A program made the translations under genes and the position numbers. Positions 2,365-63,208 of a stretch of DNA of 64,000 bases are shown here, in pieces. Below the pieces are notes generated by a model. It saw only the letters and a program-made list of their open reading frames with translations. It searched no databases and was not told the origin of the DNA. Positions within the stretch are counted from its first letter, which is position 1. Every line of letters starts with the position of its first letter. The DNA comes from Candidatus Moraniibacteriota bacterium (GTDB lineage: Bacteria; Patescibacteriota; Minisyncoccia; Moranbacterales; UBA1568): contig JBPOHW010000005.1 in the NCBI GenBank assembly GCA_052035095.1, positions 30,269-94,268 of the forward strand. Reading direction: 5' to 3'.

Positions 2365-4152
2365 CTACTGACGCCTCATTGCCTCCGTCGGCTCGATGCG
2401 GGCGTATTCGAGCAGAAACTTCATCACCTTGCCAAAGGTCGGCGCGGCGCTCGACTCCGCCCAGACGACATCCTTGGGGTTATCAATCTTTACCAAAACG
2501 GCGAACTTGGGATCGGAGAGTGGCGCGTAACCGACAAACGACCCGATATTCATTCCCTCTTCATATCCTTTTTCGCCGCGTTTCGCAACCTGCGCCGTCC
2601 CGGTTTTTCCGACCACCTCATACCCGGGCACATCGGCGCGCTTCCCGTGACCGTTCACGACAACATTCCGGAGCATAGCCCCCATCGCGCGCGCCGTCCC
2701 TTCGCTCACTACCGACCGAATCTCTTCGGGAGCAACTTCTTCGACACGTCCATCGGAAAGAATCATTCGTCGCACAATTCTCGGTTTCATCAGAACGCCG
2801 CCATTCGCGATCGCCGCGTAGGCATTCACCATTTGAAGCGGCGTAGCGGTAATACCCTGCCCGAAGGAAGCGGTATAGAATTCGATGGAGCGCTTCGTGT
2901 TTGCGAGATTTTTGATGTTTCCCGCCGCCTCCGCCGGAAGCGCCACGCCCGTCTTCTCCCCGAAACCGAAGCGTTTCAAGTACTCTCGAAACCGCTCATT
3001 CCCAACCTGCCGCTCGACGAATATGACGCCGGTATTGATGGATTCCTCCAAAACTCGCGTCATACTTGATCGACCATACACCTTCTCCTCGGCGTTCTTG
3101 ATAACATAGCCCCCTTCCTTCACCATTCCCGTATCGACATACTCGGTCGCCGCATTCACTTTCCCATCTTCGATACCAATCGCCATCGTCACCGGCTTCA
3201 TAATGGATCCGGGTTCATACGAAAGACTCACCGCCGGATTCAAGAACGATTCGGGATTCTCCACTTTCGAATACTCGTTCGGATTGAAATTGGGAAAAGA
3301 CGCGAGCGCGAGAATACTTCCCGTTTTCGGCTCCAGCACGAGAATCGTCCCGCCATCCGCGTGAAATCCCTCCACCGCTTCCTTCAAAATCTTCTCCACC
3401 TCATACTGAATCACCCGCTCAAGGGTGAGGACGATATTCGCCCCATGTTCGGGCGGAGCGAAAATTTTTCCCGAAAGCGGAATCCACCGTCCGCTCGCGT
3501 CGCGTTCATTGGAGAGGGATCCATGCTCTCCTTTGAGCGAAGTCTCAAACGACGCTTCAACTCCGTAGCGTCCGGCAAACGCATCTTCCTTCATCCCGAC
3601 GAATCCGACCGTCTGCGCGGCAAGATGCTCGCCCGGATAATACCGATACGTCTCCGGCAACAGAGAAACACCCTCCAAATTAAGCTCGCGCATACGCGAA
3701 ACTTCTTCATCCGAAAGTCGCCGCTTCAAAATTTCAAACGGATCGTTTTCCTTGGAAAGTTTCTCGAGAATAAATGACGAATCAAGCGAGAGCGCCGACT
3801 CGAGGTGGCGAACCGTTTGCGCGCGATCGCGAATATCCGCCGGCACGGCATAGGCGAGGAAGTACTCGCGATTCACCGCGACGGGATACAGGTCATTCGC
3901 GTCGCTCAGAAAAATTTCTCCGCGGTCCGAAGGAAGCTCTCTCGAAACATTCTGCTGCTCTTCCGCGAGCGCGAGAGAAATATCGCGTCGCACGACTTGA
4001 AGCACAAAAAGTCTCGCGACGAGCGCGAGAGAAAGACAAAAAATAAAAAGCACGAGAGCGGAAATCCTCCAGTGCTTCCGAGGAGAAGCTGCCTTCGCGC
4101 GTTTTTGAGCAGTTTTCCGCATGAACATTACGGCATAAGTTCCAATATCCAA
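2365..4152 (-). CDS. ftsI: Peptidoglycan D,D-transpeptidase FtsI (class B PBP, division-type)
   Basis: N-terminal TM anchor, dimerisation domain, and SIMKP (SxxK) and KTGTAQ transpeptidase motifs. Sits in dcw cluster context after ftsL. Confidence 0.85.
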   Translation of the reverse strand: MDIGTYAVMFMRKTAQKRAKAASPRKHWRISALVLFIFCLSLALVARLFVLQVVRRDISLALAEEQQNVSRELPSDRGEIFLSDANDLYPVAVNREYFLAYAVPADIRDRAQTVRHLESALSLDSSFILEKLSKENDPFEILKRRLSDEEVSRMRELNLEGVSLLPETYRYYPGEHLAAQTVGFVGMKEDAFAGRYGVEASFETSLKGEHGSLSNERDASGRWIPLSGKIFAPPEHGANIVLTLERVIQYEVEKILKEAVEGFHADGGTILVLEPKTGSILALASFPNFNPNEYSKVENPESFLNPAVSLSYEPGSIMKPVTMAIGIEDGKVNAATEYVDTGMVKEGGYVIKNAEEKVYGRSSMTRVLEESINTGVIFVERQVGNERFREYLKRFGFGEKTGVALPAEAAGNIKNLANTKRSIEFYTASFGQGITATPLQMVNAYAAIANGGVLMKPRIVRRMILSDGRVEEVAPEEIRSVVSEGTARAMGAMLRNVVVNGHGKRADVPGYEVVGKTGTAQVAKRGEKGYEEGMNIGSFVGYAPLSDPKFAVLVKIDNPKDVVWAESSAAPTFGKVMKFLLEYARIEPTEAMRRQ

Positions 4153-4250
4153 ACTCCAATTTCCAAATAAATTTCAATATTCAAAATAGTAGAAACATTC
4201 TCGCTTGATATTTGTGATTTGAAATTTATTTGGAACTTGTGATTTTGAAT

Positions 4251-4604
4251 TTATTTCCCGTAGGCAACCGTACCCGGCTCTTCAAGGGAAATCGCTCCCT
4301 CAATCGGCTTCATATCAAGGCAACTACTCGCTTCTTCCAGACCATAGAGCGATCGGAGCTCCGCCTCTCGTATGCGGAGCCGTTGCGATTCATTCGAAAG
4401 CTCGATCATCCGTTTCTCGACGGCGCGCATAGAATACCCCGCGACCGCGTTCCGGTTCACCGAGAAGAGATACCCGACCACCGCAACAAAAAGACTGAGG
4501 CAGGCAAGTATCTTTGCAATTCGCAGTCGCCCCCCCGACCCTAATGTCTCCGCCTCGTCACGATGAGGCGCGCACCCTCGCATTGTCATATGTTTCCGGT
4601 ACAT
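4251..4604 (-). CDS. ftsL: FtsL-like cell division protein (small bitopic coiled-coil protein)
   Basis: 117 aa with a single TM helix (ILACLSLFVAVVGYLF) followed by a coiled coil. Located between rsmH and ftsI, the canonical ftsL position. Confidence 0.6.
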   Translation of the reverse strand: MYRKHMTMRGCAPHRDEAETLGSGGRLRIAKILACLSLFVAVVGYLFSVNRNAVAGYSMRAVEKRMIELSNESQRLRIREAELRSLYGLEEASSCLDMKPIEGAISLEEPGTVAYGK

Positions 4605-5703: not shown

Positions 5704-5815
5704 AACAGAGTACGGAAAGCTAATTTCAAATAATAAATTTCAAGTTTTAAAATAATTTTTGAATTTCAAAAATTTAGAATCATTTTGCATTTTTCATTTT
5801 ACATTTTGCATTTCC

Positions 5816-6250
5816 CTAGTACGCTCCCATCTTCCCCAATTCTTCCGCGATTCGTTCGGAGTTTCCTTCGGCATCCTGCTTGTAGTGTTTCCACTTCGTC
5901 TCATCCCACACCTCAAGCCGATTCCAGAGTCCGGCGACAATCACATCCTTCGACAATCCGGCATAATCCTTGAGGGCATCCGGTATGAGGATTCGTCCCT
6001 GACTGTCCACCTCGGTATCGAAGGCTCCCGCAAGCATCAGCCGCACAAAGCTCCGCGTCCCCCCCTCGCCGATCGGCATCGAACCGAGCTTCTCCGCGAG
6101 CGCCTCCCATGTTTTCATCGGATAGACAAAGAGGCACTGATCGAGCCCGCGCGTCACCACCACCCGACTCCCCAATTCGCCGCGTACCTTTGATGGAAGC
6201 GAGAGTCGTTTTTTCGTATCGATACTGTGGGTATACTCGCCGATGAACAT
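5816..6250 (-). CDS. mraZ: Transcriptional regulator MraZ
   Basis: MFIGEYTHSIDTKKRLSLPSKVR... tandem MraZ/SpoVT-AbrB-like halves. The ORF-track ORF (to 6406) has an unsupported N-terminal extension; the start is placed at the internal MFIGEY Met (ATG at 6248-6250). Confidence 0.85.
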   Translation of the reverse strand: MFIGEYTHSIDTKKRLSLPSKVRGELGSRVVVTRGLDQCLFVYPMKTWEALAEKLGSMPIGEGGTRSFVRLMLAGAFDTEVDSQGRILIPDALKDYAGLSKDVIVAGLWNRLEVWDETKWKHYKQDAEGNSERIAEELGKMGAY

Positions 6251-11622: not shown

Positions 11623-11648
11623 GTATAAAAATCAATCAGTCCCATCGA

Positions 11649-11768
11649 GGACTTCCTCACTTTGATGCAGTTCGAGGAAAAACCAAGCACTGAAACGAGG
11701 TGTATGAGACATACTCCGAGTGAGGAGCGCAGGTTTTGACGAAGAAATGCGCAAAGTGAGGAAGTCCC
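11649..11768. repeat. Divergent copy (C) of the ~130-150-bp terminal-inverted-repeat element family (see 36621 and 60626)
   Basis: Shares internal blocks ATGCAGTTCGAGGAAAA and TTTTGACGAAGAAATGCGC with copies A and B. Its terminal inverted repeat is GGACTTCCTCACTTTG...CAAAGTGAGGAAGTCC, different in sequence from A/B but still perfectly self-complementary (compensatory changes). Confidence 0.6.
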
Positions 11769-11772
11769 ACCA

Positions 11773-12951
11773 TCAATAAATCACAATCGGAGTGCCTATG
11801 TCCGCCCACTCAAAGACTCGTTTCGCGGGACCGATGCCAAGACGGACGCAACCGTGCGACACGGGAATACCCAAATGATTCGTACCCTCTTTGTAGCCAC
11901 CGGGCCACTCGGGAAGCTCGTGAATGCCAAACTTCCCGCCGGGCACGATCGCCATCCAGTATGGCATATAGAGCCCATAGGTTTTGGACCAGGCGCGCGG
12001 CGTCTTGTTATGAATCGAAAATGTTCCCGTGGGCGTATCCATTCCTCGTTTTCCGGAAGAAATCATAAACGCGTCAAGTGCCGTCCCGTTTTCGAAAATC
12101 GTCATAACCTGACTCGAAATATTGACATCGATATACTTCCCCGTCGTTATCGCGGGATCCGTATAGCGCTTGGCCTCAAGGAGACGCGTCGGAAAATCCT
12201 TCGCCCACGCGGAGGGCTTGGGAGGGAGCGTTTCAAAACTTCCTTCATATATTTTTGCAAACGAATCATCACTCCCCTCGCGATGACGCGCGCGGACGAC
12301 GAGCGTATACCGCTTCCCCGACTGAATATCGCTCGGAAGAATACGAAATTCCGATTTCTCGGGATCGATTTCATAGACGATCGCTCCCGCGTCATTAAAA
12401 GAAAATTCGAGAAAAGAATCTTTTGCCGGCCGATCAAGCGTTACGACAACCGGATCCTCGGCGCCGAGAAGCACGTCTCTCGCGCCATCCTCGGGGGAAA
12501 CCGACGCGACCGAAGGCGGCGCCCATGTTTCAAAAACAAGCGTCGTCTCGGGAATCATTCCCAACCATCGCGTCTTCCCAGCGGGAAGCGACACCGTATA
12601 GCGCGTCCCAAATTCCCATTGAGACTTCGGTCGAATAAGAAGCTTCATGTCGTCATCCTTCCATTCAAAACTCATGTCGGCGGACGGGCTGACACGAATC
12701 CCCTCGACGAACCCTTCCGTCTTCACGGAAGAAAGAAAAACAATGCCGATCGCGCTCTCGGACTTCACATTCCCCACGGTCGTCAAATCAAGCTCCGGCC
12801 GCGTTTCGGTGATACGCGCGTAGGAACGAAATCCGTACACAAATCCCGCCGAAAGAAACAAGAGCACTATAGAAAGCGGGAGCGCGCTCCACCTTGTCCG
12901 CCCCTTACTCGCCCCTACCTTCCTCGCCCTCGATGAAAAATTGAAGTGCAT
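11773..12951 (-). CDS. L,D-transpeptidase (YkuD domain) with N-terminal TM anchor and Ig-like domains
   Basis: C-terminal HELPEWPGGYKEGTNHLGIPVSHGCVRL is the L,D-transpeptidase catalytic His/Cys motif. Confidence 0.8.
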   Translation of the reverse strand: MHFNFSSRARKVGASKGRTRWSALPLSIVLLFLSAGFVYGFRSYARITETRPELDLTTVGNVKSESAIGIVFLSSVKTEGFVEGIRVSPSADMSFEWKDDDMKLLIRPKSQWEFGTRYTVSLPAGKTRWLGMIPETTLVFETWAPPSVASVSPEDGARDVLLGAEDPVVVTLDRPAKDSFLEFSFNDAGAIVYEIDPEKSEFRILPSDIQSGKRYTLVVRARHREGSDDSFAKIYEGSFETLPPKPSAWAKDFPTRLLEAKRYTDPAITTGKYIDVNISSQVMTIFENGTALDAFMISSGKRGMDTPTGTFSIHNKTPRAWSKTYGLYMPYWMAIVPGGKFGIHELPEWPGGYKEGTNHLGIPVSHGCVRLGIGPAKRVFEWADIGTPIVIY

Positions 12952-17590: not shown

Positions 17591-19258
17591 CTATTTTTTC
17601 TCGATACTCCACCGGCCGCCTTCATCTCCCTTTTTCTCCGCGATCATTCCGATCGCGCCCAACCACACCCAGACAAAGCCCAAAAGAATGCCGGAATTAA
17701 AGAAATTAAAAACAGTCAAACCGACCCACGAGGTCAAGAAGAAAACGGCAACCGCGCGACTCGAAAACGCATCCTCTCCTCCGAGATGTCTCCCAAAAGA
17801 TGTTCGGAGCGCGAAAAACGGGACGCACAGCCAGAAGAGCGCAAACGCAATGAGACTGATCATACCGCCGCCGAGCCATACTTCGAGAAACGCGTTGCTT
17901 GCGTTGAGCGCTGATCCGCGATCGTCCGTCCCGAGAATATCGCCGATACTCCCCCACCCGATCCCGAAGAGCCAATGTTCCCTCAACGTCTCAAACGTTT
18001 TTTCTCGAATGACACGACGCGCTTCGATACTCGGATCGAGACGAAGGACGGTTGAGATGAATTTTCCGGCATTTTTTTCCGCCTCGATGTCTTCCAATCG
18101 AATATGCCGGCAATCATACGGAGAAAGCTCCGCGACATCCCCTATTCTTTCCGGCAGAGAAATCGGCGTCGCGCAGGAAACGGTTATTTCTTGCACTCCC
18201 GAAACCGTACTGCCGGCGCGGCTCCCGATGTCAAAAGTCGTGAGCCGAAACGCCCACACGGCAAAAAGCGCGAGCAAAAATGAAGCAAATACCGCCGTAC
18301 TCCCCTTCGCGAACAGTTTCCACCGCCACTCGCGCGGATTCCATGAATACTTTCCCACGAGAAGAAGCTTCAAAAACAAAAGCGCGGAAAAGGCGAACCC
18401 CACCCACGCACTCCGCGCGACCGTGAGGAGAAGCCCAAGGAGAAGCGTTAAAAATGAGAAATGCAAAATGAAAAATTTAAAAAAGGAATACAAAGAAGAT
18501 TTTTCGAAATTTTTCATTGTGCATTTTTCATTTTGCATTTCCCCATTTATTTTCAAAGAACCTCTCTCAAGGAGAAAAAACATCAAAGAGAGGAAAATGC
18601 TTGATGAAAAGATAAGGAACATCCCGAGCCAATCCGGTTCGGGGAAAAAAGCGTTGGGACGTCCCGGCATCACCTCAAACGAGGAAAGTCCCGCCGTAAA
18701 TCGAACACTCTGCCACAGGGCAAACAAAGCCGTGAGTACCGAGGGAACGACGAGGAAAAGAAGCGCGCGGCGAGCGTCACGCGCCTCCCCAAAAAATTGC
18801 CGCGAAAGAAAATAGAGCGCGACAAAAGAAAGCGCGACTACCGCTTGCTTGCTCGCGCCCGCGGAATCCGACGCGGAAGCGATCGAAAAAAATCCGCCGA
18901 GCGCGAAGAGAAGCGGGAGTACGTCAAACCATCGGAACTTTACTGGAGAAAACGAGAGTCGTCGAAACAGAAAACGCAAAAAAATCGCGAGAAGTATATT
19001 CGCGCCAAGCAATTGATACGGTCGGAGAGAGAACGGGATCGAATCCGGCGAAAGGTTCACCATCTCAAACGGGAGAAGCGAGAGAAATATCAGAAACGCC
19101 CACCCGGGACGATAGAGCGCAAAAAGAAATGAAAGCGCGACAAAAAACCAAACATCAATCTCGCCGAGCGGAAACAATTCCGAGTTTCCAAAAACAAGGA
19201 AGAAGAGATTGAGAAATACGGCGCCCGAAAGGAGCGCGATCGGAACCATGCGAATCAT
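17591..19258 (-). CDS. O-antigen ligase/Wzy-like polytopic membrane protein
   Basis: About 12 TM helices and TVARSAWVGFAFSALLF (the RSAW-G loop typical of the Wzy_C/O-antigen ligase family). It contains an in-frame AT-rich insertion at about 18470-18545 (see findings). Confidence 0.5.
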   Translation of the reverse strand: MIRMVPIALLSGAVFLNLFFLVFGNSELFPLGEIDVWFFVALSFLFALYRPGWAFLIFLSLLPFEMVNLSPDSIPFSLRPYQLLGANILLAIFLRFLFRRLSFSPVKFRWFDVLPLLFALGGFFSIASASDSAGASKQAVVALSFVALYFLSRQFFGEARDARRALLFLVVPSVLTALFALWQSVRFTAGLSSFEVMPGRPNAFFPEPDWLGMFLIFSSSIFLSLMFFLLERGSLKINGEMQNEKCTMKNFEKSSLYSFFKFFILHFSFLTLLLGLLLTVARSAWVGFAFSALLFLKLLLVGKYSWNPREWRWKLFAKGSTAVFASFLLALFAVWAFRLTTFDIGSRAGSTVSGVQEITVSCATPISLPERIGDVAELSPYDCRHIRLEDIEAEKNAGKFISTVLRLDPSIEARRVIREKTFETLREHWLFGIGWGSIGDILGTDDRGSALNASNAFLEVWLGGGMISLIAFALFWLCVPFFALRTSFGRHLGGEDAFSSRAVAVFFLTSWVGLTVFNFFNSGILLGFVWVWLGAIGMIAEKKGDEGGRWSIEKK

Positions 19259-22064: not shown

Positions 22065-22649
22065 CTACTTTTTAGAAGTCTTCTTTTTCACACCGAGTTT
22101 CTTCGTTTTCTTTGGAAGTGCGAAATTTTTCTTCCAATTGTCGCCACTGAAGCGACCGGTTTTCTCGTAGTCCGTCGACACGGGCGACGAGAGCTCGGAA
22201 AAAGTTAGTTGTGCAATCGGCATTCCTGGACGAAGCACAATAGGGACGATATTGAGATTCGAAAGTTCGAGAGTAATATTCAAGAAGTGCCCCGGATTCA
22301 CGATACCGGCGGTATTATGAACCACGAGCCCGATGCGCGCCAGACTGCTCTTCCCCGACAATTGGATGAGATATTTCTTAGATCCCACGAAGTCGCGCAC
22401 CATTCCCAAAACGGTCGTCCGCGGGTGAAGCACGAAATATTCGCCGTCCTTCACCTCCACTTCATGTGTATTGGCAAAAAGCCCCTTCACCGGATCGATG
22501 AATTCCGTCGTATGCTGATCCGTCACGACAAATTTGTTTCCCAAGAGCACGTCATAGCTTGCCGGTTGAATACGTTTTCGATCAAAGTCCCTCAAAACAA
22601 CATCTCCCGATTCAATCGCTTTCACAATATCCCGATCAGAAAGATACAT
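22065..22649 (-). CDS. dcd: dCTP deaminase (Dcd family) with lysine-rich C-terminal tail
   Basis: MYLSDRDI N-terminus and a dUTPase-like fold (GYDVLLG-type motifs). The start is placed at MYLSD. It has an unusual KKTKKLGVKKKTSKK C-terminus. Confidence 0.75.
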   Translation of the reverse strand: MYLSDRDIVKAIESGDVVLRDFDRKRIQPASYDVLLGNKFVVTDQHTTEFIDPVKGLFANTHEVEVKDGEYFVLHPRTTVLGMVRDFVGSKKYLIQLSGKSSLARIGLVVHNTAGIVNPGHFLNITLELSNLNIVPIVLRPGMPIAQLTFSELSSPVSTDYEKTGRFSGDNWKKNFALPKKTKKLGVKKKTSKK

Positions 22650-22680
22650 AGTCGTTTCATAGCAAATTACTCTGGAATCT

Positions 22681-22785
22681 TCTCTCATGAACGCCGAGAC
22701 CGCGAAAAATAATTTTTCTCAAGCTTGCTCCGATAGAGAGGAGCATGTGAGAAAAAATATTTTTCGTGGTCGAGGCAACTTTCAA
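22681..22785. repeat. Copy 1 of a ~110-125-bp palindromic intergenic repeat family (3 copies)
   Basis: TCTCTCATGAACGCCGAGACCGCGAAAAATAATTTTTCTC-AAGCTTGCTCCGATAGAGAGGAGCATGTGAG-AAAAAATATTTTTCGTGGTCGAGGCAACT. It has a long outer stem plus an inner GC hairpin. Compensatory changes in the outer stem (CCGCG/CGTGG here versus CTGCA/TGCAG in copy 2) preserve pairing. Confidence 0.7.
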
Positions 22786-22812
22786 GGGAGGGGAAATAAA
22801 AGTAATTTCGTT

Positions 22813-25836: not shown

Positions 25837-25927
25837 AGAATATGTTACTTGCCCACCCCGTAAAGACTCCGAACCTCAAAAGAACTCTCGAAAAATAGTT
25901 CCCTAAAACCGAATTATCTTGAAGACT

Positions 25928-26035
25928 TCTATCATGCGCGCCGAGACTGCAAAAAATAATTTTTCGAAAGCTTGCTCCGAGCCCAACGAGGAGCATGTGA
26001 GAAAAATTATTTTTTGCAGTCGAGGCAACTCACAA
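25928..26035. repeat. Copy 2 of the palindromic intergenic repeat family
   Basis: TCTATCATGCGCGCCGAGACTGCAAAAAATAATTTTTCGAAAGCTTGCTCCGAGCCCAACGAGGAGCATGTGAGAAAAATTATTTTTTGCAGTCGAGGCAACTCACAAGG. It has a perfect roughly 21-bp outer stem. Confidence 0.7.
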
Positions 26036-26072
26036 GGTAGCAGAGAGATTAGGCACATTGGTACAGAACCCT

Positions 26073-28537: not shown

Positions 28538-28690
28538 CAACCACCCTACCCTTCGGGCACCCCTCCACCGGAGGGGAATTTTTTGCGCATTCATTCCCCT
28601 CCGGTGGAGGGGCGAGGGGGTGGTAGCTCTCCGGTGGAGGGGGTAGGGGGTGGTAACTCTGCGATGAAGGCAGTGGCTCCCCATTTCTCA
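28538..28690. repeat. G/C-rich palindromic + tandem 30-bp repeat block (copy A of 3), left boundary of AT-rich island
   Basis: CCCTTCGGGCACCCCTCCACCGGAGGGGAAT...ATTCCCCTCCGGTGGAGGGG inverted repeat, followed by tandem CCGGTGGAGGGG(C/G)(G/T)AGGGGGTGGTA(G/A)CTCT units. The same architecture recurs at 31118-31300 and 31738-31935. Confidence 0.7.
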
Positions 28691-28696
28691 TGCCGA

Positions 28697-31056
28697 TTAC
28701 TTTTGCAGTTCCGCCATGTTTACCGATCGCTTGCTGATTTTGATCATTTCCTCGTCGTGTGAAACACAAATTATCGTAGTGTCCGGATATTTCTCGTTTA
28801 TCTCACTGATAATTTTCCTTACTTCGGTTGCAGCTTGCGAATCGAGGCTTGCCGTCGGTTCATCAAGCAACATGATCTTTGCCCCTTTAACCAAAGTGCG
28901 CGCTACGCCAATCCTTACCCTCTCACCTCCCGATAAATTTTTTACTTCTTCGTCGAGTCTGCCAATAAATTTTTCCAAATGCAAATCTTCCAATACTTTC
29001 TTTATTTTTTCATAGCTTATTTCTTCTTTCGACCACAGCAAAATATTTTCACGCAATGTCATTTCATCAAAAATTTGCGGATTTTGGTTGCAGTAAGACA
29101 TGACTGAATAGATCGATTTTTTGCCGTATTTTTTTATGTTGTCATTCTTAACTCCGCCTATTTCTATTTCACCGCCACCCGGCTTATATAGACCAACTAA
29201 ATTTCGGAGCAGTGTCGATTTTCCAATTCCAGATGCTCCCGATATAGCCAAGAATTCTCCCTGCTTAATATTCATGCTTATACCGCGCAAAATATTTTTA
29301 TAGCGAAGATTTTTTATAGAAATATCAAAATTTTCCAATTCGGAAATCGGTACGCGTTCCTTTTCTTTTTCACCTTCCGGCAAATCCAGTTTTTCGTATT
29401 TTCCAAAAATTTCGTCCATCCGTTGTATATCCTGAATATAACGAGAAAATCTATTGAAATAAAGACTTACCAATTCTTGAACCGGGTAATTTAGCATGCC
29501 AGAATAAGTGATATTTGACAAAATAGCTCCACCGGAAATCATGCCGACCGCTTGAAGCGCGCCACCTACGCCAGCCGCCACGACGGTTGAAACATCAAAA
29601 GGAATCCTCCTTATCAAATCCATCTTCGTTTCTTCGACAAATCTCCCCAACGAAAGAGTATCTATTCTGTCCATCTGCCTTTTTACATCGGCGGCAATGA
29701 TCGGCGTTTCAGACGAAGTTTTAATTTCTTCAAATCCACTCTTTATCGATCCGAGACGCGTCTCTATTTTTCCCCCTCTCGTCTTTCTTTTTCATACATC
29801 GGCCAGACTTCATTATTCTGTTTTTTCGCGACTCTATACATAACAGGCAGGCTTCCAGCGCCAATTGCACCAAGAACAGGATTTATTTTCATCAAAAATG
29901 CGAGAGACATGGCTATTCCCGCTAAAGTCGGAGCAAATTCTGAAAGAGTGTCTCGTAAAATTCCCTCTGTCGCGTTTTTGCCCCTTTCCAAAGTCGCATA
30001 AATTTCGCCCAATGGTTTTTCGTGTATAAATTCAAATTCTTGAAAAAACAACGAATTGGTTATCCGTTCGTTAATTTGATGATTAATTTCATTCATCACC
30101 TTAGCCAGTTCGATTTTACTCTTCGCATCAATAAGCACTGATACCTTGTTGAGTCCGAGAAATTCCAAAAACACGGCGACATTGAACCTATCTTGCACGA
30201 TTATGTCTTGAAATAATGACGGGGCGAAACTTTCCAAACCTTTTGACGCTAAATGTCCAAGAGAAATTTTTGCTATCGCTCCTTTTTTCTCACCCAACTC
30301 ATACTCGTTCCAAAGCCGCGTGATTGTTTCAACGAGAACTCTCGGCGAATAATTTTCATCCTCGCCTTTGTCAGATCGTATAAGATCTACTAAAATTTCA
30401 ACCTCAACCTTGTCCAATGGATATCGATTTTGTAGGTCTTTTACCAACTCGGCTTTTTGTTTTCGTTGTTCCTTTTCGTCGATCTCGCCGTCTTCATCAA
30501 TCATTTTGTCCTTGTAAAAATCAGCGATATCTTTTTCCAACGACTTTGTGTTCATCACGTTCCCGATTGAATCAAAAAGCAGCCAGCATTGAGCACGTAA
30601 TTCTTCAGTATCTTCTTCAGTAAGAGATGATTCTCTTTTGTTTCGTATCTCGCTGACTAGATTCTCAATCCAGTCTTCAATAGCGCAGGAAAACTCTTCA
30701 CTATTAACATTAACAAATTCTCTGTGCGGATGCTCTTCTGATTTTTTGGCTTTCTCGTTAAAACCCTTCAAGATTTGTTTGTATTCGGTCACCAGTTCTG
30801 GCGCGATGAGTTCGCTCAACAACTTCATTTTTTCTTGTTCCTCCAAGGTCGGTTTTTCAACAGAGATCTTCTCTTGGATTGATAAACGTAAAGACAACCA
30901 ATGATCCTTGAGCGTCATCGGTCTTCCCTCTGTTTCGTCATGTTCTTCAAGAGTAAGCGGTTCCGCTTTTGCAGATTCTTTCTCTCGCTCAATTTCTCCT
31001 TTGATTGGCCTAAAAAAATCACTTTCTTTCATAGTTGTGAAACATAAAACAACCAC
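28697..31056 (-). pseudogene. Atypical ABC exporter (N-terminal ~330-aa charged domain + partial TMD + NBD) interrupted by a frameshift at a G5A5 homopolymer run (~29765-29792)
   Basis: The downstream ORF has TMD helices 5-6 plus an NBD (Walker A ISGASGIGKST, signature LSGGERVRIG, Walker B IMLLDEPTASLD). The upstream ORF (29764..31056) ends in a TMD segment homologous to ABC-exporter ICL1/TM3-4. The downstream frame stays open back to 29792 and overlaps the upstream stop (29764-29766). A single-base indel in GAGGGGGAAAAA would fuse them. Confidence 0.5.
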
Positions 31057-31117: not shown

Positions 31118-31300
31118 ATGCGAGAGACCACCCCACCCTTCGGGCACCCCTCCACCGGAGGGGAATCATCCCCGTTCCAATTCCCCTCCGGTGGAGGGGG
31201 TAGGGGGTGGTAGTTCTCTAGCAGAGGGGGTAGGGAGTGGTTTAATAGGCGAGGGGGTGGTAGCTCTGCGGTAGAGGGAACAATAAGCGTTAGCCCCCTC
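31118..31300. repeat. G/C-rich palindromic + tandem repeat block (copy B)
   Basis: Same core as 28538-28690: CCACCCCACCCTTCGGGCACCCCTCCACCGGAGGGGAATCATCCCCGTTCCAATTCCCCTCCGGTGGAGGGGGTAGGGGGTGGTAGTTCTCT, followed by degenerate tandem units. Confidence 0.7.
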
Positions 31301-31307
31301 TGTAAGA

Positions 31308-31673
31308 TCATACCTTCCCATTTTGAAACGCCGAATGTTTCCCGAGCCATTCCATAACATTCGGGAGATTTTTTTTCACCTCCCAATCATCGATATGAAT
31401 AACGGTAAGACCGAGTCCCTCAAGAAACAAATCCCGTTCTCGGTCGTATTCTTGTTTGTCATCATGGCTACTCCCATCAATTTCTATAACCACCATTGCG
31501 TTAGAACAAAAGAAATCGACGATGTAGTGTCCGATAATTTTCTGCCGATCAAAATCGAGCCCCCTGAATTGACCATTTCTTATCTGTTGCCAAAAGAGCA
31601 CCTCTGAAAGATTTCCCGATTTTCTCAATTCTCTCGCGCGTTCTTTGAGTTTCGGATTGTAAGGAAGGGACAT
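31308..31673 (-). CDS. DUF559-type (Vsr/PD-(D/E)xK-like) endonuclease-domain protein
   Basis: MSLPYNPKLKERARELRKSGNLSEVLFWQQIR...IIGHYIVDFFCSNAMVVIEIDGSSHDDKQEYDRERDLFLEGLGLTVIHIDDWEV is the classic DUF559 sequence pattern. The ORF-track N-terminal extension is translation of the repeat block. Confidence 0.7.
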   Translation of the reverse strand: MSLPYNPKLKERARELRKSGNLSEVLFWQQIRNGQFRGLDFDRQKIIGHYIVDFFCSNAMVVIEIDGSSHDDKQEYDRERDLFLEGLGLTVIHIDDWEVKKNLPNVMEWLGKHSAFQNGKV

Positions 31674-31737
31674 GAAGTTTCGCGTATGACGAAAAACTAT
31701 CACGTCTTTCGGGCACTCATCAATACGAGAGACCACT

Positions 31738-31935
31738 CCACTCTTTGGGTGCCCCTCCATACGGGAAGGTACCACCCCGCCCTTCGGGCACCCCTCCACC
31801 GGAGGGGAATCATCCCCGCTCCAATTCCCCTCCGGTGGAGGGGCAAGGGGGTGGTAACTCTCCGGTGAAGGGGCAAGGGGGTGGTTGTCCCGTGTTGGAG
31901 GGGGTAGGGGGTGGTAGCTCTGTAGTGAAGAAGCG
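31738..31935. repeat. G/C-rich palindromic + tandem repeat block (copy C), right boundary of AT-rich island
   Basis: CCACCCCGCCCTTCGGGCACCCCTCCACCGGAGGGGAATCATCCCCGCTCCAATTCCCCTCCGGTGGAGGGGCAAGGGGGTGGTAACTCT, then at least three tandem 30-bp units. Confidence 0.7.
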
Positions 31936-32068
31936 ATTCGACAAAATCGAGGGGATACCATATTCCGAAGTTCATACGAATCAACCGTAAAATCAATCCA
32001 TCCACCTCTTCATCTTATCCTATTTTTCTTCGTGTCTCAATGCGGAAAGAATTTTATCACAATTCTTC

Positions 32069-33420: not shown

Positions 33421-33577
33421 GAAGAAGAAAGATAAAAGAAAATTCCAAATCCAAAATCACAATTTCCAAATAAGCACCAAATCACAAACATAAAACGAAG
33501 TAGGTAAGACCATTTTGAACATTGAGATTTGAATTTTATTTGGAACTTACAATTTTTAATTTGATAGTTTATCCCCT

Positions 33578-36600: not shown

Positions 36601-36620
36601 AGATGTTTTCTTAAATAATC

Positions 36621-36749
36621 TAGGACTTACGCGTTTGAGTGCAGTTCGAGGAAAATGCGAGGAACAGAGTAAACTGTATGCGCCATACAGCGTCCCCGCC
36701 GAGGCGGGGGAACATTTGACGAAGAAATTCGCCAAACGCGTAAGTCCTA
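36621..36749. repeat. Copy A of a ~130-150-bp element with 17-bp perfect terminal inverted repeats (TAGGACTTACGCGTTTG...CAAACGCGTAAGTCCTA), flanked by TA
   Basis: TAGGACTTACGCGTTTGAGTGCAGTTCGAGGAAAATGCGAGGAAC...GTCCCCGCCGAGGCGGGGGAACATTTGACGAAGAAATTCGCCAAACGCGTAAGTCCTA. It is near-identical to 60626-60773 and related to 11649-11768, and sits in the 5' leader of the response-regulator gene. Confidence 0.75.
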
Positions 36750-36752
36750 TAA

Positions 36753-37541
36753 TCAACGGAATTTCCACTTCCACATATATCGTACCCACGACCGTATATG
36801 CTCGCGCGCGAGGCGACTCGTAAAAGGCGCCACAAACCAACGTGATCGAGCGCTCCCTCTCGCGTGATCGTGTATGACAACCGCTTCCGGCAAGTATACC
36901 ACTCGAAGACCACTCCGCCACGCCCGACGGCACAGATCGGTATCTTCAAAATACATAAAGAAGCGCTCATCAAACCCGCCCACCCGCCGATAAAAATCCG
37001 CTCGTATCATAAGGCACGACCCGATCATCCAGTCGACATCGCGAATCGTCTCGTGATCGAAGTCGGTCATAAGATACCGCCCGAGATACGCCGGCACAAG
37101 ACGCCCGAGCGATGTCCGACGTACAATCGGCGTCCACACTTTCGGAAACCGAAGGCAGGAATATTGAAGCGTCCCGTCGGGATTCAAGAGTTTCGGCCCC
37201 ATAATGCCGATATCCTCACGCTCCTTCATACCCAAAAAAAGAAGTCGGACAGCATCGGGACGAACCAAGGTGTCGGGATTCAGAATAAGGAAAAACTTCC
37301 CCGTCGCCCGCTCGGCGCCCCGATTGTTCCCGCCCCCCATTCCGAGATTCTTTCCGCTTGAAAGGAACACTGCCTCCGGAAACTCCCTCTCGAAAGAAGT
37401 ATCAAAATCAGCCGTCTCGCTATTGTCAACCACGATCGTTTCATGCGATACTCCCGAGAAATCGGCTTTCCGAAGAGAACAAAGACACCGCCGAGTTTTC
37501 TCTCGGCTTCGATAGTTAACCAGAATGATACTCACGTCCAT
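36753..37541 (-). CDS. Glycosyltransferase family 2
   Basis: MDVSIILVNYRSREKTRRCL...VVDNSE...DTD...DED are GT-A (DXD) motifs. The ORF-track N-terminal 69 aa are antisense read-through of tRNA-Arg and are discarded; the start is the ATG at 37539-37541. Confidence 0.8.
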   Translation of the reverse strand: MDVSIILVNYRSREKTRRCLCSLRKADFSGVSHETIVVDNSETADFDTSFEREFPEAVFLSSGKNLGMGGGNNRGAERATGKFFLILNPDTLVRPDAVRLLFLGMKEREDIGIMGPKLLNPDGTLQYSCLRFPKVWTPIVRRTSLGRLVPAYLGRYLMTDFDHETIRDVDWMIGSCLMIRADFYRRVGGFDERFFMYFEDTDLCRRAWRSGLRVVYLPEAVVIHDHARGSARSRWFVAPFTSRLAREHIRSWVRYMWKWKFR

Positions 37542-49032: not shown

Positions 49033-49054
49033 AATCCCTCCGTTTTATTAGAAC

Positions 49055-49694: not shown

Positions 49695-49745
49695 AGAAAG
49701 AATATTAATGGTTAACACCAAAACACCCTGAAATCTTCTATCATG

Positions 49746-49858
49746 CACGCCGAGACTGCAATCCCGCCTTGGCGGGACGAAAGTTTGCTCCGAGCCCAAC
49801 GAGGAGCATGTGAGAAAAATTATTTTTTGCGGTCGAGGCAACTCACAAGATAGCAGAG
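49746..49858. repeat. Copy 3 of the palindromic intergenic repeat family (variant 5' arm carrying its own CCCGCC-TT-GGCGGG hairpin)
   Basis: TCTATCATGCACGCCGAGACTGCAATCCCGCCTTGGCGGGACGAAAGTTTGCTCCGAGCCCAACGAGGAGCATGTGAGAAAAATTATTTTTTGCGGTCGAGGCAACTCACAAGA. Confidence 0.7.
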
Positions 49859-49962
49859 ATTAAAGTAAGTTGGTATAGCATCCCTTCATTACAGGTATTG
49901 TAGCATACGTCGAATAAATCAAAAACGCGCACCGTAGAGACACAAAATCTTTCGTCTCTACC

Positions 49963-60612: not shown

Positions 60613-60625
60613 GATTGATATAATT

Positions 60626-60773
60626 TAGGACTTACGCGTTTGAGTGCAGTTCGAGGAAAATGCGAGGAACGGAATGAATTGTTTGGGAAACAATTCATTG
60701 TATGCGCCATACAGTGTCCCCGCCGAGGCGGGGGAGCATTTGACGAAGAAATGCGCCAAACGCGTAAGTCCTA
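60626..60773. repeat. Copy B of the terminal-inverted-repeat element (17-bp perfect TIRs, TA-flanked), with an extra internal palindrome
   Basis: TAGGACTTACGCGTTTGAGTGCAGTTCGAGGAAAATGCGAGGAACGGAATGAATTGTTTGGGAAACAATTCATTGTATGCGCCATACAGTGTCCCCGCCGAGGCGGGGGAGCATTTGACGAAGAAATGCGCCAAACGCGTAAGTCCTA. Sits between the galU stop and the next gene. Confidence 0.75.
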
Positions 60774-60777
60774 ATCG

Positions 60778-61656
60778 TTAAAGATCAAGTTTTTTTAAGT
60801 ATTCACGAAGACGCGATCCGGTTTCGGGATGCTTGAGACCGAAATGAACGGTTGTCTTGAGGAAGTTGAATTTATCGCCCGTATCGAACCACTCTCCTTC
60901 AAGAAGGCGCCCATGAATCGGCTTTCCCTCGCGGAGCATACGGTTAAAGGCGTCAACCAATCGTATCTCTCCCGATTCTCCTTCGGTCATCGTCGAAAGC
61001 GTCCGGAAGACATCGTACGTCAAAATATACTTTCCGGGCGCGACCACGGTACTCGGCGCCTCCTCAACGCTCGGCTTCTCCACGATGGCGCGAACGCGAA
61101 TATCGCGATCATTCAAGAAGTCTCCCGCGACCACGCCAAACTTTGACACTTCTTCGCGCGGAATATCCGTCAGTCCGATAATCGGTGTCTGATATTCATA
61201 GTATGCCTCCATAAGCTGGGCGGATGCCGGCGTCCCGCTGTCATAAATACAGTCGCCAAAAATAACAAGAACACTTTCATCATCGTCCACCAAATGCGAT
61301 GCCTGAAAAAGCGCGTGCCCATCTCCCAGAGGAATCGGTTGCCGGACATAGGAAAACTTCGCAAGCCCTGAAATCTTTTGCACCGCCTCGAGAAGATCGA
61401 GCTTGTTTTTCTCAACGAGCGTATCTTCAAGTTCATACGACACATCGAAATGATCTTCGATCGCGCGCTTGCCGCGCCCCGTCACGAAAATGATTTCCTC
61501 AATGCCGGACGCAATCGCCTCTTCAACCAAATACTGCACCACCGGCTTGTCAACGATCGGGAGCATCTCTTTCGGTTGCGCCTTCGTCGCCGGCAAAAAC
61601 CTCGTCCCAAACCCCGCGACCGGCAATATCGCCTTCTTGATTTTTGTGTGTTTCAT
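60778..61656 (-). CDS. galU: UTP--glucose-1-phosphate uridylyltransferase (GalU)
   Basis: KAILPVAGFGTRFLPATKAQPKEMLPIVDKPVVQY is the nucleotidyltransferase signature of GalU. Confidence 0.85.
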   Translation of the reverse strand: MKHTKIKKAILPVAGFGTRFLPATKAQPKEMLPIVDKPVVQYLVEEAIASGIEEIIFVTGRGKRAIEDHFDVSYELEDTLVEKNKLDLLEAVQKISGLAKFSYVRQPIPLGDGHALFQASHLVDDDESVLVIFGDCIYDSGTPASAQLMEAYYEYQTPIIGLTDIPREEVSKFGVVAGDFLNDRDIRVRAIVEKPSVEEAPSTVVAPGKYILTYDVFRTLSTMTEGESGEIRLVDAFNRMLREGKPIHGRLLEGEWFDTGDKFNFLKTTVHFGLKHPETGSRLREYLKKLDL

Positions 61657-61681
61657 AAGTTTTCTCTTGCAAAATCAAGAT

Positions 61682-61930
61682 TTACAAAATCCCAGAAACA
61701 ATGAAAAAAATAGCCACGAAAAATAATAGCACCGAGATAGAAACTCTATATCTTCTTTTATCAATATCACCGTAGAAGGAATCAGAAAAAAACACACTCC
61801 ACCAAAATCCACCACCAAGAAAAAATTTCTTCACTCTCGCCCAAAATGATTGAGACAGAAAGAAAAGTAGCAATGAGAAAAAACAAAGAGATCCTCCGAT
61901 AACCAACGAAACAATCTTAAAACTATTCAT
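61682..61930 (-). CDS. Small membrane protein (hypothetical)
   Basis: 82 aa with two predicted TM helices. Confidence 0.35.
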   Translation of the reverse strand: MNSFKIVSLVIGGSLCFFSLLLFFLSQSFWARVKKFFLGGGFWWSVFFSDSFYGDIDKRRYRVSISVLLFFVAIFFIVSGIL

Positions 61931-61963
61931 ATAATTTCATAATTCAAAGAAAGATTACCGCAC

Positions 61964-63208
61964 TTATCGATACAAGGGAAACTTCTTACAGAGTGCCGAC
62001 ACTTCTTTGCGAAGTGACTTCAAAATTTTTGCGTCGCCTTTTGAGCGGAGCGTCGCGTCCATCCACCCGGCGATTTTCTTCACTTCTTTTTCCTTCATAC
62101 CGCGCGTCGTAAGCGCGGGAACGCCGATACGGATGCCGGAGGGATCCATGGGACTGCGCGCGTCATCGGGAATGACGTTCTTGTTGAGCGTGATACCGAT
62201 TGCGTCGAGGAGCGTTTCCGCCTCTTTCCCGCCGATACCGAGCGTCCCGAAAACATCCACCAAAATCATATGATTGTCCGTTCCGCCGAAAAGAATCGCG
62301 TACCCGCGGCTCCGGAACTCCCCCTCGAGCATCCGCGCGTTTTTCAAAATTTGCGCCGCGTATTTTTTGAACGGAGGTCGAAGCGCCTCCTGAAACGCCA
62401 CCGCTTTCGCCGCGATGATATTCATATGGGGTCCTCCTTGTATTCCAGGGAACACCGCTTTGTCAATGTCCTTCGCAAACTTTTCGCGACACAGGATCAT
62501 CCCGCCTCGAGGACCGCGCAGCGTCTTGTGTGTCGTCGTTGTCACGACATCAAAGTACTCGACCGGGTTGGGCACGACGCCGCCCGCGACAAGCCCCGCG
62601 ATATGCGCCATATCCATCATCGTGATCGCGCCCACCTTCTTCCCGATCGCAGTGAATTTTTTGTAATCGATCTGACGCGTGTACGAAGAAAATCCCGCAA
62701 GCAACAATTTCGGCTTTTCTTTCTGCGCGAGCGAGAGCAATTTCGCGTAATCAATAGTTCCGTCCGCTTCCGTCTTGTACCGGACGAATCGGAACACCTT
62801 TGAAGAGAACGTCACCGGATGTCCGTGCGTCAAGTGCCCTCCGTGTGAAAGATCCATCCCGAGTATCGTATCCCCGGGCGCGAGGAGCGCCGCGTAGGCG
62901 GACATATTCGCCGAGGCGCCCGAAAGCAACTGAACATTCGCGTGTTCCGCCCCGAAGAGTTTCTTCGCTCGCTCGATCGCGAGCGTCTCCACGATATCGG
63001 TAAACTGTTGCCCGCCATAGTAGCGACGCCCCGGATACCCCTCGGAATACTTGTTGGTAAAAACCGTCCCCAAGGCCTCAATAACCGCGGGAGAAGCGTA
63101 GTTTTCCGACGCAATCATTTCAAGTCCTTCCTCCTGTCGATTCATCTCCCCCATTATCGCCGCCATCACCTTCCCATCCGTCTTTTTGACCGCCGCATAT
63201 CGAAACAT
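61964..63208 (-). CDS. glyA: Serine hydroxymethyltransferase
   Basis: LEMIASENYASPAVIEALGTVFTNKYSEGYPGRRYYGG and the PLP-lysine region (TTTTHKTLRGPRGG). Confidence 0.9.
   Translation of the reverse strand: MFRYAAVKKTDGKVMAAIMGEMNRQEEGLEMIASENYASPAVIEALGTVFTNKYSEGYPGRRYYGGQQFTDIVETLAIERAKKLFGAEHANVQLLSGASANMSAYAALLAPGDTILGMDLSHGGHLTHGHPVTFSSKVFRFVRYKTEADGTIDYAKLLSLAQKEKPKLLLAGFSSYTRQIDYKKFTAIGKKVGAITMMDMAHIAGLVAGGVVPNPVEYFDVVTTTTHKTLRGPRGGMILCREKFAKDIDKAVFPGIQGGPHMNIIAAKAVAFQEALRPPFKKYAAQILKNARMLEGEFRSRGYAILFGGTDNHMILVDVFGTLGIGGKEAETLLDAIGITLNKNVIPDDARSPMDPSGIRIGVPALTTRGMKEKEVKKIAGWMDATLRSKGDAKILKSLRKEVSALCKKFPLYR

Follow-up and report, generated by a model that had tools for sequence, protein, structure and literature searches.

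The window analyzed here, a 64,000-nucleotide stretch of a Moraniibacteriota genome from the candidate phyla radiation (CPR), carries three copies (A, B, and C) of a short hairpin-forming repeat, which are probably non-autonomous mobile DNA elements mobilized in trans, that is, miniature inverted-repeat transposable elements (MITEs) in the broad sense. The aspartyl-tRNA synthetase encoded in the window is identical to one from a JGI metagenome contig of 234 kb, and its best named relatives belong to Candidatus Moranbacteria/Moraniibacteriota, within Patescibacteria. The GC content of the window is about 50%, and because the minus strand carries 38 of the 48 open reading frames (ORFs) of at least 150 amino acids and the plus strand is enriched in C over its whole length, the minus strand is probably the leading strand; crude ORF-based tallies of orientation miscall genes in a window of this composition. 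Copy A (36621–36749, plus strand, 129 nt including its terminal TA...TA) lies 20 nt upstream of the ATG of a response regulator gene, in the spacer that separates this gene from the stop codon of a glycosyltransferase gene; both genes are on the minus strand. The response regulator, described as an orphan in the original prediction, has a histidine kinase gene at a distance of about 1.2 kb upstream, within a cluster of genes that relatives share. Copy B (60626–60773, plus strand, 148 nt) separates the stop codon of galU from the ATG of the next minus-strand gene. Copy C (11647–11769, plus strand, 123 nt, with terminal GA...CA) lies, as had been proposed, between convergent genes beside a terminator: an RRM-protein gene followed by its terminator on the plus strand and the stop codon of a YkuD L,D-transpeptidase gene on the minus strand. 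The better-folding strand of all three copies is the plus strand, and it is antisense to both genes around A and B and to the gene abutting C. The copies are short (123–148 nt) and non-coding, and the ORFs running across them are spurious.

The three copies are genuine members of one family and can be aligned from end to end. A covariance model built from the wider family and run with its filters off matched only C (112.5 bits), A (101.7 bits), and B (94.9 bits) in the 64 kb, all on the plus strand, with a runner-up at 13 bits; solo matches resembling the terminal inverted repeats (TIRs), at 49051 and 40789, look like chance. Copy A has a perfect 17-bp TIR, TAGGACTTACGCGTTTG (36621–36637) and CAAACGCGTAAGTCCTA (36733–36749), which forms the two arms of a terminal stem (P1) that covaries across the family, and copy C has a perfect 16-bp TIR of another sequence, GGACTTCCTCACTTTG/CAAAGTGAGGAAGTCC. 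The claim that the stem of C differs and is nevertheless fully complementary was borne out, and the same compensation holds family-wide. Two inner blocks, GCAGTTCGAGGAAAA and TTTGACGAAGAAAT, have the same letters in A, B, and C and occur nowhere else in the window. In A, the 5′ block (36641–36655) comprises P2, a G, the UUC of P3, a GA loop, a G, a second GA loop, and the start of P4, and the 3′ block (36715–36728) comprises the end of P4, a GA loop, a C, a GAA loop, the GAA of P3, an A, and P2. Each copy folds into a single long hairpin (folding z-scores of −6.7, −8.9, and −9.8 for the three copies).

Two internal hairpins had been described as shared by all copies, and this held for one of them. 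The apical hairpin CTGTATG...CATACAG (36674–36690 in A), which is the GUA...UAC hairpin of the family and helix 5 in our covariation analysis, is common to A, B, and C, whereas CCCCGCC-GAG-GCGGGGG (36694–36710 in A) is an expansion specific to A and B that is missing from C and from the family consensus. Copy B differs from A by a few substitutions and an extra 19-nt nested mini-hairpin (GAATGAATTGTTTGGGAAACAATTCATT, annotated at 60673–60699). Such optional mini-hairpins occupy the same internal site in elements with different terminal stems: GAATGAATTGTTTGGGAAACAATTCATT is present in B, which has type A ends, and in a type C element of another Moraniibacteriota metagenome-assembled genome (MAG; locus L010), and GCCTGCCTGCCGGTAGGCAGG recurs at loci L007, L026, and L057. 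This sharing suggests nested insertion or recombination between subfamilies.

Insertion polymorphism and the target-site duplication

Copy B provides the most direct evidence of mobility. Among contigs from other samples that encode an identical GalU, seven have an empty site (L107–L111, L113, and L114) and one (L112) is filled, as in the window. An empty contig aligned to the window is 97–98% identical in nucleotide sequence in the flanks, and B is therefore a strain-level insertion polymorphism. The empty site reads CTTTAACGATTATATCAATCATG, with just 14 nt separating galU from the next gene. The net insertion relative to it is 151 nt, which fits a target-site duplication whose right copy, ATCGT (60774–60778), is complete and overlaps the GalU stop codon (60778–60780), and whose left copy is shortened to ATT (60623–60625). 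Copy A is absent from relatives with the same gene order and an aspartyl-tRNA synthetase 84–87% identical, in which the spacer between the glycosyltransferase and response regulator genes measures 74–282 nt and is too diverged for exact alignment of an empty site. Near-identical copies are also found within single genomes, and the element has been recently active. The characterization of the repeat as MITE-like and mobile was thus supported.

The duplicated target is 5 bp long and lies outside the TA dinucleotides that had been taken for it. Among 34 family copies with GGAC-type ends, 5-bp direct repeats outside the terminal dinucleotide were perfect in 13 and matched at four of five positions in 5 more, against chance frequencies, derived from mismatched partners, of 0.2% and 4%, respectively; in the same 34 copies, no perfect 5-bp repeat occurred at offsets 0, 1, 3, or 4, and all were found at offset 2. 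The junctions of A (marked by slashes) read TAATC/TAGGAC...GTCCTA/TAATC, with the duplicated pentamer at 36616–36620 and 36750–36754, and those of C read CCATC/GAGGAC...GTCCCA/CCATC, with the pentamer at 11642–11646 and 11770–11774. The right pentamer overlaps the minus-strand stop codon of the glycosyltransferase gene (36753–36755) in A and of the YkuD gene (11773–11775) in C, so that, with B included, every window copy has its duplication overlapping the stop codon of the minus-strand gene beside it. Of 37 family copies, 29 have TA before GGAC and 28 have it after GTCC; this TA is the terminal dinucleotide of the element, and it lengthens the stem by two base pairs. The ends of C, GA and CA rather than TA, set its true limits at 11647 and 11769.

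Target sites are AT-rich, with A or T (W) at position −3. An asymmetric target motif was considered and rejected, as the flanks on both sides yield just W-TA and AT-richness. A generic finder of stem ends and duplications intended for all subfamilies proved too noisy, since flanks rich in A and T can pair together. Several short metagenome contigs (L112, L115, L100, and many of JAYRSG01) end within element copies, and the repeat therefore appears to break assemblies of these CPR genomes.

The window holds other variable or repetitive segments. A 306-nt segment between the SHMT gene and galU (61657–61966), with an 82-amino-acid hydrophobic ORF, is present in the window and in L107 and L111 and absent from a 97% identical JGI contig (L108 and L109), and thus constitutes a second strain-level indel. 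Another repeat family of about 150 bp, presumably the "first repeat family" of the original prediction, has three copies that are 63–96% identical (22643–22796, 25890–26046, and 49713–49859). G-rich 30-bp tandem repeats (CTCCGGTGGAGGGG[C/T]AGGGGGTGGTAG...) form three blocks (28540–28699, 31127–31278, and 31771–31932), two of which flank a gene (31311–31961) for a DUF559 protein with a Vsr-like endonuclease domain. Intergenic AT-rich low-complexity repeats (TTGAAATTT/CAAATTT-like) are found at 4137–4252, 5722–5816, 33440–33562, and 18509–18543. Two of the three element copies lie less than 1 kb from the only two tRNA genes of the window; a linkage to tRNAs was nevertheless rejected, given that most of 60 loci have no tRNA nearby.

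A family defined by the fold of one strand

To the three window copies, our searches added a previously uncatalogued family that extends across several bacterial phyla. A split 22-base pattern taken from both core blocks and scanned in one-genome-per-species contigs gave 97 matching stretches, where about 2 were expected by chance (an estimate) and about 7 look coding or coincidental, and the covariance model identified 110 copies in 591 kb of loci. According to the record labels, the hosts among Patescibacteria include Moraniibacteriota, Magasanikbacteria, Campbellbacteria, Saccharibacteria, Gracilibacteria, Peribacteria, and others, and those among cultured Bacillota are Halalkalibacter, Alkalihalobacillus, Anaerobacillus, Heyndrickxia, Paenisporosarcina, and Clostridium. 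Two Pseudohongiellaceae MAGs represent Gammaproteobacteria, and further MAGs are labeled Bdellovibrionales, Micavibrio, and Myxococcota. At least one Bdellovibrionales label is doubtful, as the gyrB of that MAG is 79% identical in nucleotide sequence to that of a Moraniibacteriota MAG, which suggests that the label of the MAG at L057 is wrong. In these two related genomes, a copy lies upstream of gyrB in opposite orientation (L027:3201-3331 and L057:2584-2734), reflecting either independent insertions at a hot spot or an in-place inversion between the stem arms. The terminal-stem types of A/B and of C were each found again in other genomes.

No Rfam 15 family matched any copy, even at E ≤ 10; blastn against phage and plasmid collections gave no matches; and the pattern scan of IMG/VR returned two matches, both coding and attributable to chance. 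The family was not found described in the literature on CPR MITEs or structured RNAs or by its sequence strings. All-against-all clustering of the ORFs within 2.5 kb of copies recovered only syntenic housekeeping genes and no recurring neighbor protein. Each of the two Pseudohongiellaceae MAGs has a gene for a 191-amino-acid HNH-motif protein that is followed, 96 nt downstream, by a single sense copy (L012:1306-2101 and L054), an arrangement seen nowhere else.

The anatomy can be read from the ends toward the apex. The outermost terminal stem P1, of 16–20 bp and of any sequence, is followed by a small loop; inside it come P2, of 3 bp (GC, AU, CG, or UA), an unpaired G, and P3 (UUC/GAA). P3 encloses a GA/GAA loop, a single G=C pair, a GA/GA loop, and P4 (AAAnnn/nnnUUU), and within P4 a variable bulged middle section leads to the apical NNGUA...UACNN hairpin. 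The asymmetric core, GUUCGAGGAAA/UUGACGAAGAA, is near-invariant across phyla; in 19 copies that were found without the pattern, it was 85% identical to the consensus, compared with 52% elsewhere. The terminal stem, in contrast to this fixed core, is free in sequence, always base-paired, and constant in length, and the distance from GGAC to GTCC has a modal value of 119 nt irrespective of the stem sequence. Free ends and a fixed interior are the reverse of the conservation normally seen in MITEs. In four Patescibacteria STA_36 loci (L031, L065, L066, and L094), an extra hairpin of about 40 nt lies within the 3′ arm of the terminal stem, and the broken arm picks up again about 50 nt past the core.

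Covariation supported this structure well beyond copy C. Across 109 distinct sequences, 90.5% of cells were paired, versus 62.5% after shuffling and 36–46% with the partners slid, and double changes occurred in 25 of 28 pairs; the alignment had been fitted to the model, and an independent MAFFT/RNAalifold run gave the same outer helices. Compensatory changes in P3 were found at L062, L044, and L008. The CGAAGAA of the core matches the bulged strand of Haloarcula marismortui Kt-7, and a kink-turn of that type was considered as the core structure. It was rejected, since the adenine at the would-be position 2b (column 165) forms a Watson-Crick pair with column 30, and the compensatory changes of this pair from U-A to A-U and G-C at the same three loci exclude the kink-turn register.

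Of 112 copies, 109 (with RNA parameters) and 110 (with DNA parameters) had a more stable fold on the strand containing GTTCGAGGAAA than on the complementary strand, an asymmetry that arises partly from the shared core, such that the copies are not independent evidence. G-U pairs outnumbered A-C mismatches, 134 versus 74. The conserved feature of the family is the fold of one strand.

Orientation and placement of the copies

The dispersed copies are strongly oriented. In 63 of 79, the sense strand lies on the locally C-rich strand (63:16, p ~1e-7), and the split was 48:13 where the absolute skew exceeded 0.05. Where skew and the coding-strand majority disagreed, skew predicted the orientation 18:4, and a residual skew of about −0.06 remained after the coding-strand effect was separated. 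The rule holds within each class of flanking-gene arrangement except divergent pairs, in young near-identical families (per-locus values; for example, 8 of 10 in a Myxococcota-labeled MAG), and for all three copies of a complete Campbellbacteria genome. Dispersed copies also tend to be antisense to neighboring genes. The orientation bias can be read in two ways: insertion may be coupled to the direction of replication, or copies whose more stable hairpin falls on the lagging-strand template may be lost preferentially, by analogy with quasi-palindromes, for which such orientation-dependent loss is known behavior.

In Bacillota, the placement is different. Nearly all copies lie in an rRNA operon or, in Paenisporosarcina, just after its 5S gene, and the rRNA-operon copies are always in the rRNA sense, often several per operon. 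For most of them, a gap of 3–10 nt separates the 3′ end of the stem from a 23S, 5S, or tRNA 5′ end; the Halalkalibacter copies include one that adjoins 23S and one that adjoins 5S. In two Gracilibacteria, which belong to the CPR, the element adjoins the 5′ end of 16S. The orientation of the rRNA-operon copies relative to replication is opposite to the rule of dispersed copies, which suggests an RNA-level constraint or function there, for example as a portable processing hairpin. The exceptions among Bacillota are copies in Lederbergia and Heyndrickxia (L005:7290-7414 and L091) that lie outside rRNA operons, between cation/H+ antiporter and mgtE-like genes; these are antisense to both genes and on the C-rich strand, as in the dispersed rule. 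In Paenisporosarcina (L058, L060, L073, and L088; for example, L060:194-410), the true 5S gene and its terminator are followed by tandem units, each consisting of the hairpin element, the 3′ two-thirds of a 5S-like sequence, and a terminator, which look like chimeric 5S paralogues or pseudogenes.

Probable mobilization in trans and competing readings

These observations are best accommodated by a mobile element that is an imperfect palindrome of 119–150 nt and that would integrate into AT-rich duplex DNA through a 5-bp staggered cut, landing, in a compact CPR genome, directly at stop codons where the intergenic spacers are very short. The fixed 5-bp duplication suggests that strand transfer into the duplex is of the DDE type, catalyzed by an enzyme that would act in trans and is not encoded in the window. 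Source copies would be selected for the fold and core of one strand rather than for the duplex TIR sequence; under such selection, the recognition step would probably act on a single strand in its folded form, on a hairpin, or on a cruciform. Several points weigh against this explanation. The termini vary between subfamilies and the interior is invariant, whereas recognition by a classical transposase should require conserved ends, and, read as duplex DNA, the core has two unlike arms. The left duplication of B is imperfect, with 3 nt instead of 5, and the dependence among copies noted above tempers the fold-stability asymmetry. Neither an autonomous partner nor a mobilizing enzyme was found, and the DDE-type assignment derives solely from the 5-bp duplication: no autonomous element with matching ends occurred in the 64-kb window or in about 590 kb of loci, and no split element with an insert (an unpaired 5′ or 3′ core block) was present in related loci. 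Finally, the sense copies at mature rRNA and tRNA ends suggest an RNA-level role that lies outside a mobile-element explanation. We nonetheless consider mobilization in trans the likely account of A, B, and C.

Comparison with known systems places the element near several classes. It resembles the hairpin MITEs Correia of Neisseria, RUP of S. pneumoniae, ERIC of enterobacteria, and bcr1 of the B. cereus group in being a non-coding, non-autonomous, intergenic repeat of the 100–160 bp range with TIRs, a target duplication, and transcripts that would form long hairpins; bcr1 has likewise been reported with 5-bp flanking repeats. Those repeats, however, each have a host range of one genus or species group and conserve the termini but not the interior, whereas this family spans phyla and conserves its interior. 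It also shows a replication-strand orientation bias and occurs directly 5′ to mature rRNAs and tRNAs. Tn3-derived inverted-repeat miniature elements (TIMEs) share the 5-bp duplication in AT-rich targets, the lack of autonomy, and an organization that is essentially two joined ends. TIMEs carry Tn3-family inverted repeats of about 38 bp that begin with GGGG and end with TAAG, features absent from the termini seen here (TAGGAC..., TAGAAC..., and others).

The alternative that survives best starts from the stable-RNA operons. The core and the ruler-length stem could constitute a portable RNA or single-strand processing module found across phyla, positioned 5′ of mature stable RNAs as an asymmetric-loop RNase III-type site or a small self-cleaving motif; the dispersed copies of CPR and other genomes would then be a mobilized offshoot, a selfish repeat with strand-specific spread and survival relative to replication and with counterselection of the sense orientation within mRNAs. 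In favor of this reading, stable-RNA operons hold sense copies exclusively, and the majority of these stop 3–10 nt short of the mature 5′ terminus of 23S, 5S, or a tRNA (Bacillota) or of 16S (Gracilibacteria). In addition, the transcribed strand has purine-rich loops that do not vary, and the antisense tendency of dispersed copies agrees with such selection. By analogy, the element recalls the rRNA-operon spacer, intervening-sequence, and T7-type RNase III hairpins, which are long, irregular, co-transcribed, adjacent to a mature terminus, and sporadic in phylogeny; unlike them, the module is also found in other genomes as a mobile repeat with dispersed copies, and processing would be assigned here by that likeness. 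Against this reading, the element has no likeness to any Rfam ribozyme or leader, and the processing role is deduced from sequence. The dispersed orientation tracks GC skew better than the direction of neighboring genes, the rRNA-operon copies are partly inherited and hence not independent, and the window copies are plainly insertions. We regard this possibility, which is compatible with mobility, as rather unlikely and hold it tentatively.

A structured RNA acting on neighboring genes, as a cis-regulatory leader, a terminator, a stabilizer hairpin, or a small RNA, had been offered as the alternative to a MITE. The strong fold and covariation, the position of A 20 nt upstream of the response regulator ATG, that of C beside a terminator between convergent genes, and the co-transcribed sense copies of rRNA operons elsewhere are all in its favor. 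For the window copies, however, the folding strand is antisense to the genes around A and B and to the gene abutting C, B is missing in close strains, and A is missing in relatives, which argues against A as the 5′ leader of the response regulator. Moreover, the genes beside copies are unrelated, promoter-like −10 boxes, whether element-borne or in the flank, show no enrichment upstream of the sense end relative to the antisense end, and the hairpin lacks a following U-tract as well as an Rfam match. The proposal is thus very unlikely for the window, whereas a structured-RNA role may still apply to the family, in which all copies in rRNA operons are sense. As the well-folding strand is antisense to the stop-codon-touching gene in three of three cases, we infer that A, B, and C are passive insertions and not regulators of adjacent genes.

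Relatives of single-stranded-DNA transposons, either REP/REPIN sequences mobilized by RAYT or palindromes derived from IS200/IS605, would have an HUH enzyme excise and insert the folded strand at replication forks. Selection on the fold of one strand and an orientation tied to the direction of replication are common to these systems and to our family, and the skew bias (63:16, or 18:4 where the coding strand disagrees), which extends to young families, would follow. HUH-type transposition by IS200/IS605 and REP elements leaves no target duplication, however, whereas the duplication here is fixed at 5 bp. Those systems carry conserved REP or subterminal hairpin sequence, and the termini here are variable; the polarity is opposite to that of IS608, with the folding strand on the C-rich strand and hence the leading-strand template, the GTAG motif of REP sequences is absent, and clustering of neighboring ORFs revealed no Y1 or RAYT gene near any copy. 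This origin is highly improbable.

Least credible, and in our judgment refuted by the 5-bp duplications, is the Tc1/IS630-type MITE of the original prediction, in which an IS630-family transposase would recognize the TIRs of GGAC...GTCC at a duplicated TA: the small size, perfect TIRs, and TA at both ends (29 and 28 of 37 copies) fit, but the TA lies inside the element, the 5-bp repeat of variable AT-rich sequence lies outside it in 13 of 34 copies (with four of five positions matching in 5 more) and never at offset 0 with five of five, and B has a net insertion of 151 nt and not 146 at its empty site. Moreover, the ends of C are GA and CA even though its CCATC duplication is perfect, subfamilies share the interior but not the TIR sequence, and a Pfam scan of the 40 largest window ORFs found no transposase domain, including no DDE_3 or helix-turn-helix transposase domain.

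Taken as three repeats in one genome, the finding is an ordinary MITE story, corrected to a 5-bp duplication; it is the family that matters. A hairpin of about 120 nt with a near-invariant asymmetric core is common to Patescibacteria, Bacillota, and Proteobacteria and shows a 4:1 replication-strand orientation bias. Of particular interest are the coexistence of an invariant asymmetric core with stems that pair but vary freely in sequence, the strand preference, and the recurrent location directly 5′ to mature rRNA and tRNA. If the processing-module reading were true, the module would define the 5′ ends of 16S, 23S, 5S, and tRNA through an RNase III-type cut or self-cleavage; it would represent a bacterial analogue of SINE-like (short interspersed nuclear element-like) elements derived from functional RNAs and possibly a new class of processing signal or ribozyme. 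If the core is the recognition site of a conserved enzyme or a processing signal, it would provide a handle on structure-defined element mobilization and on pre-rRNA maturation in poorly studied lineages.

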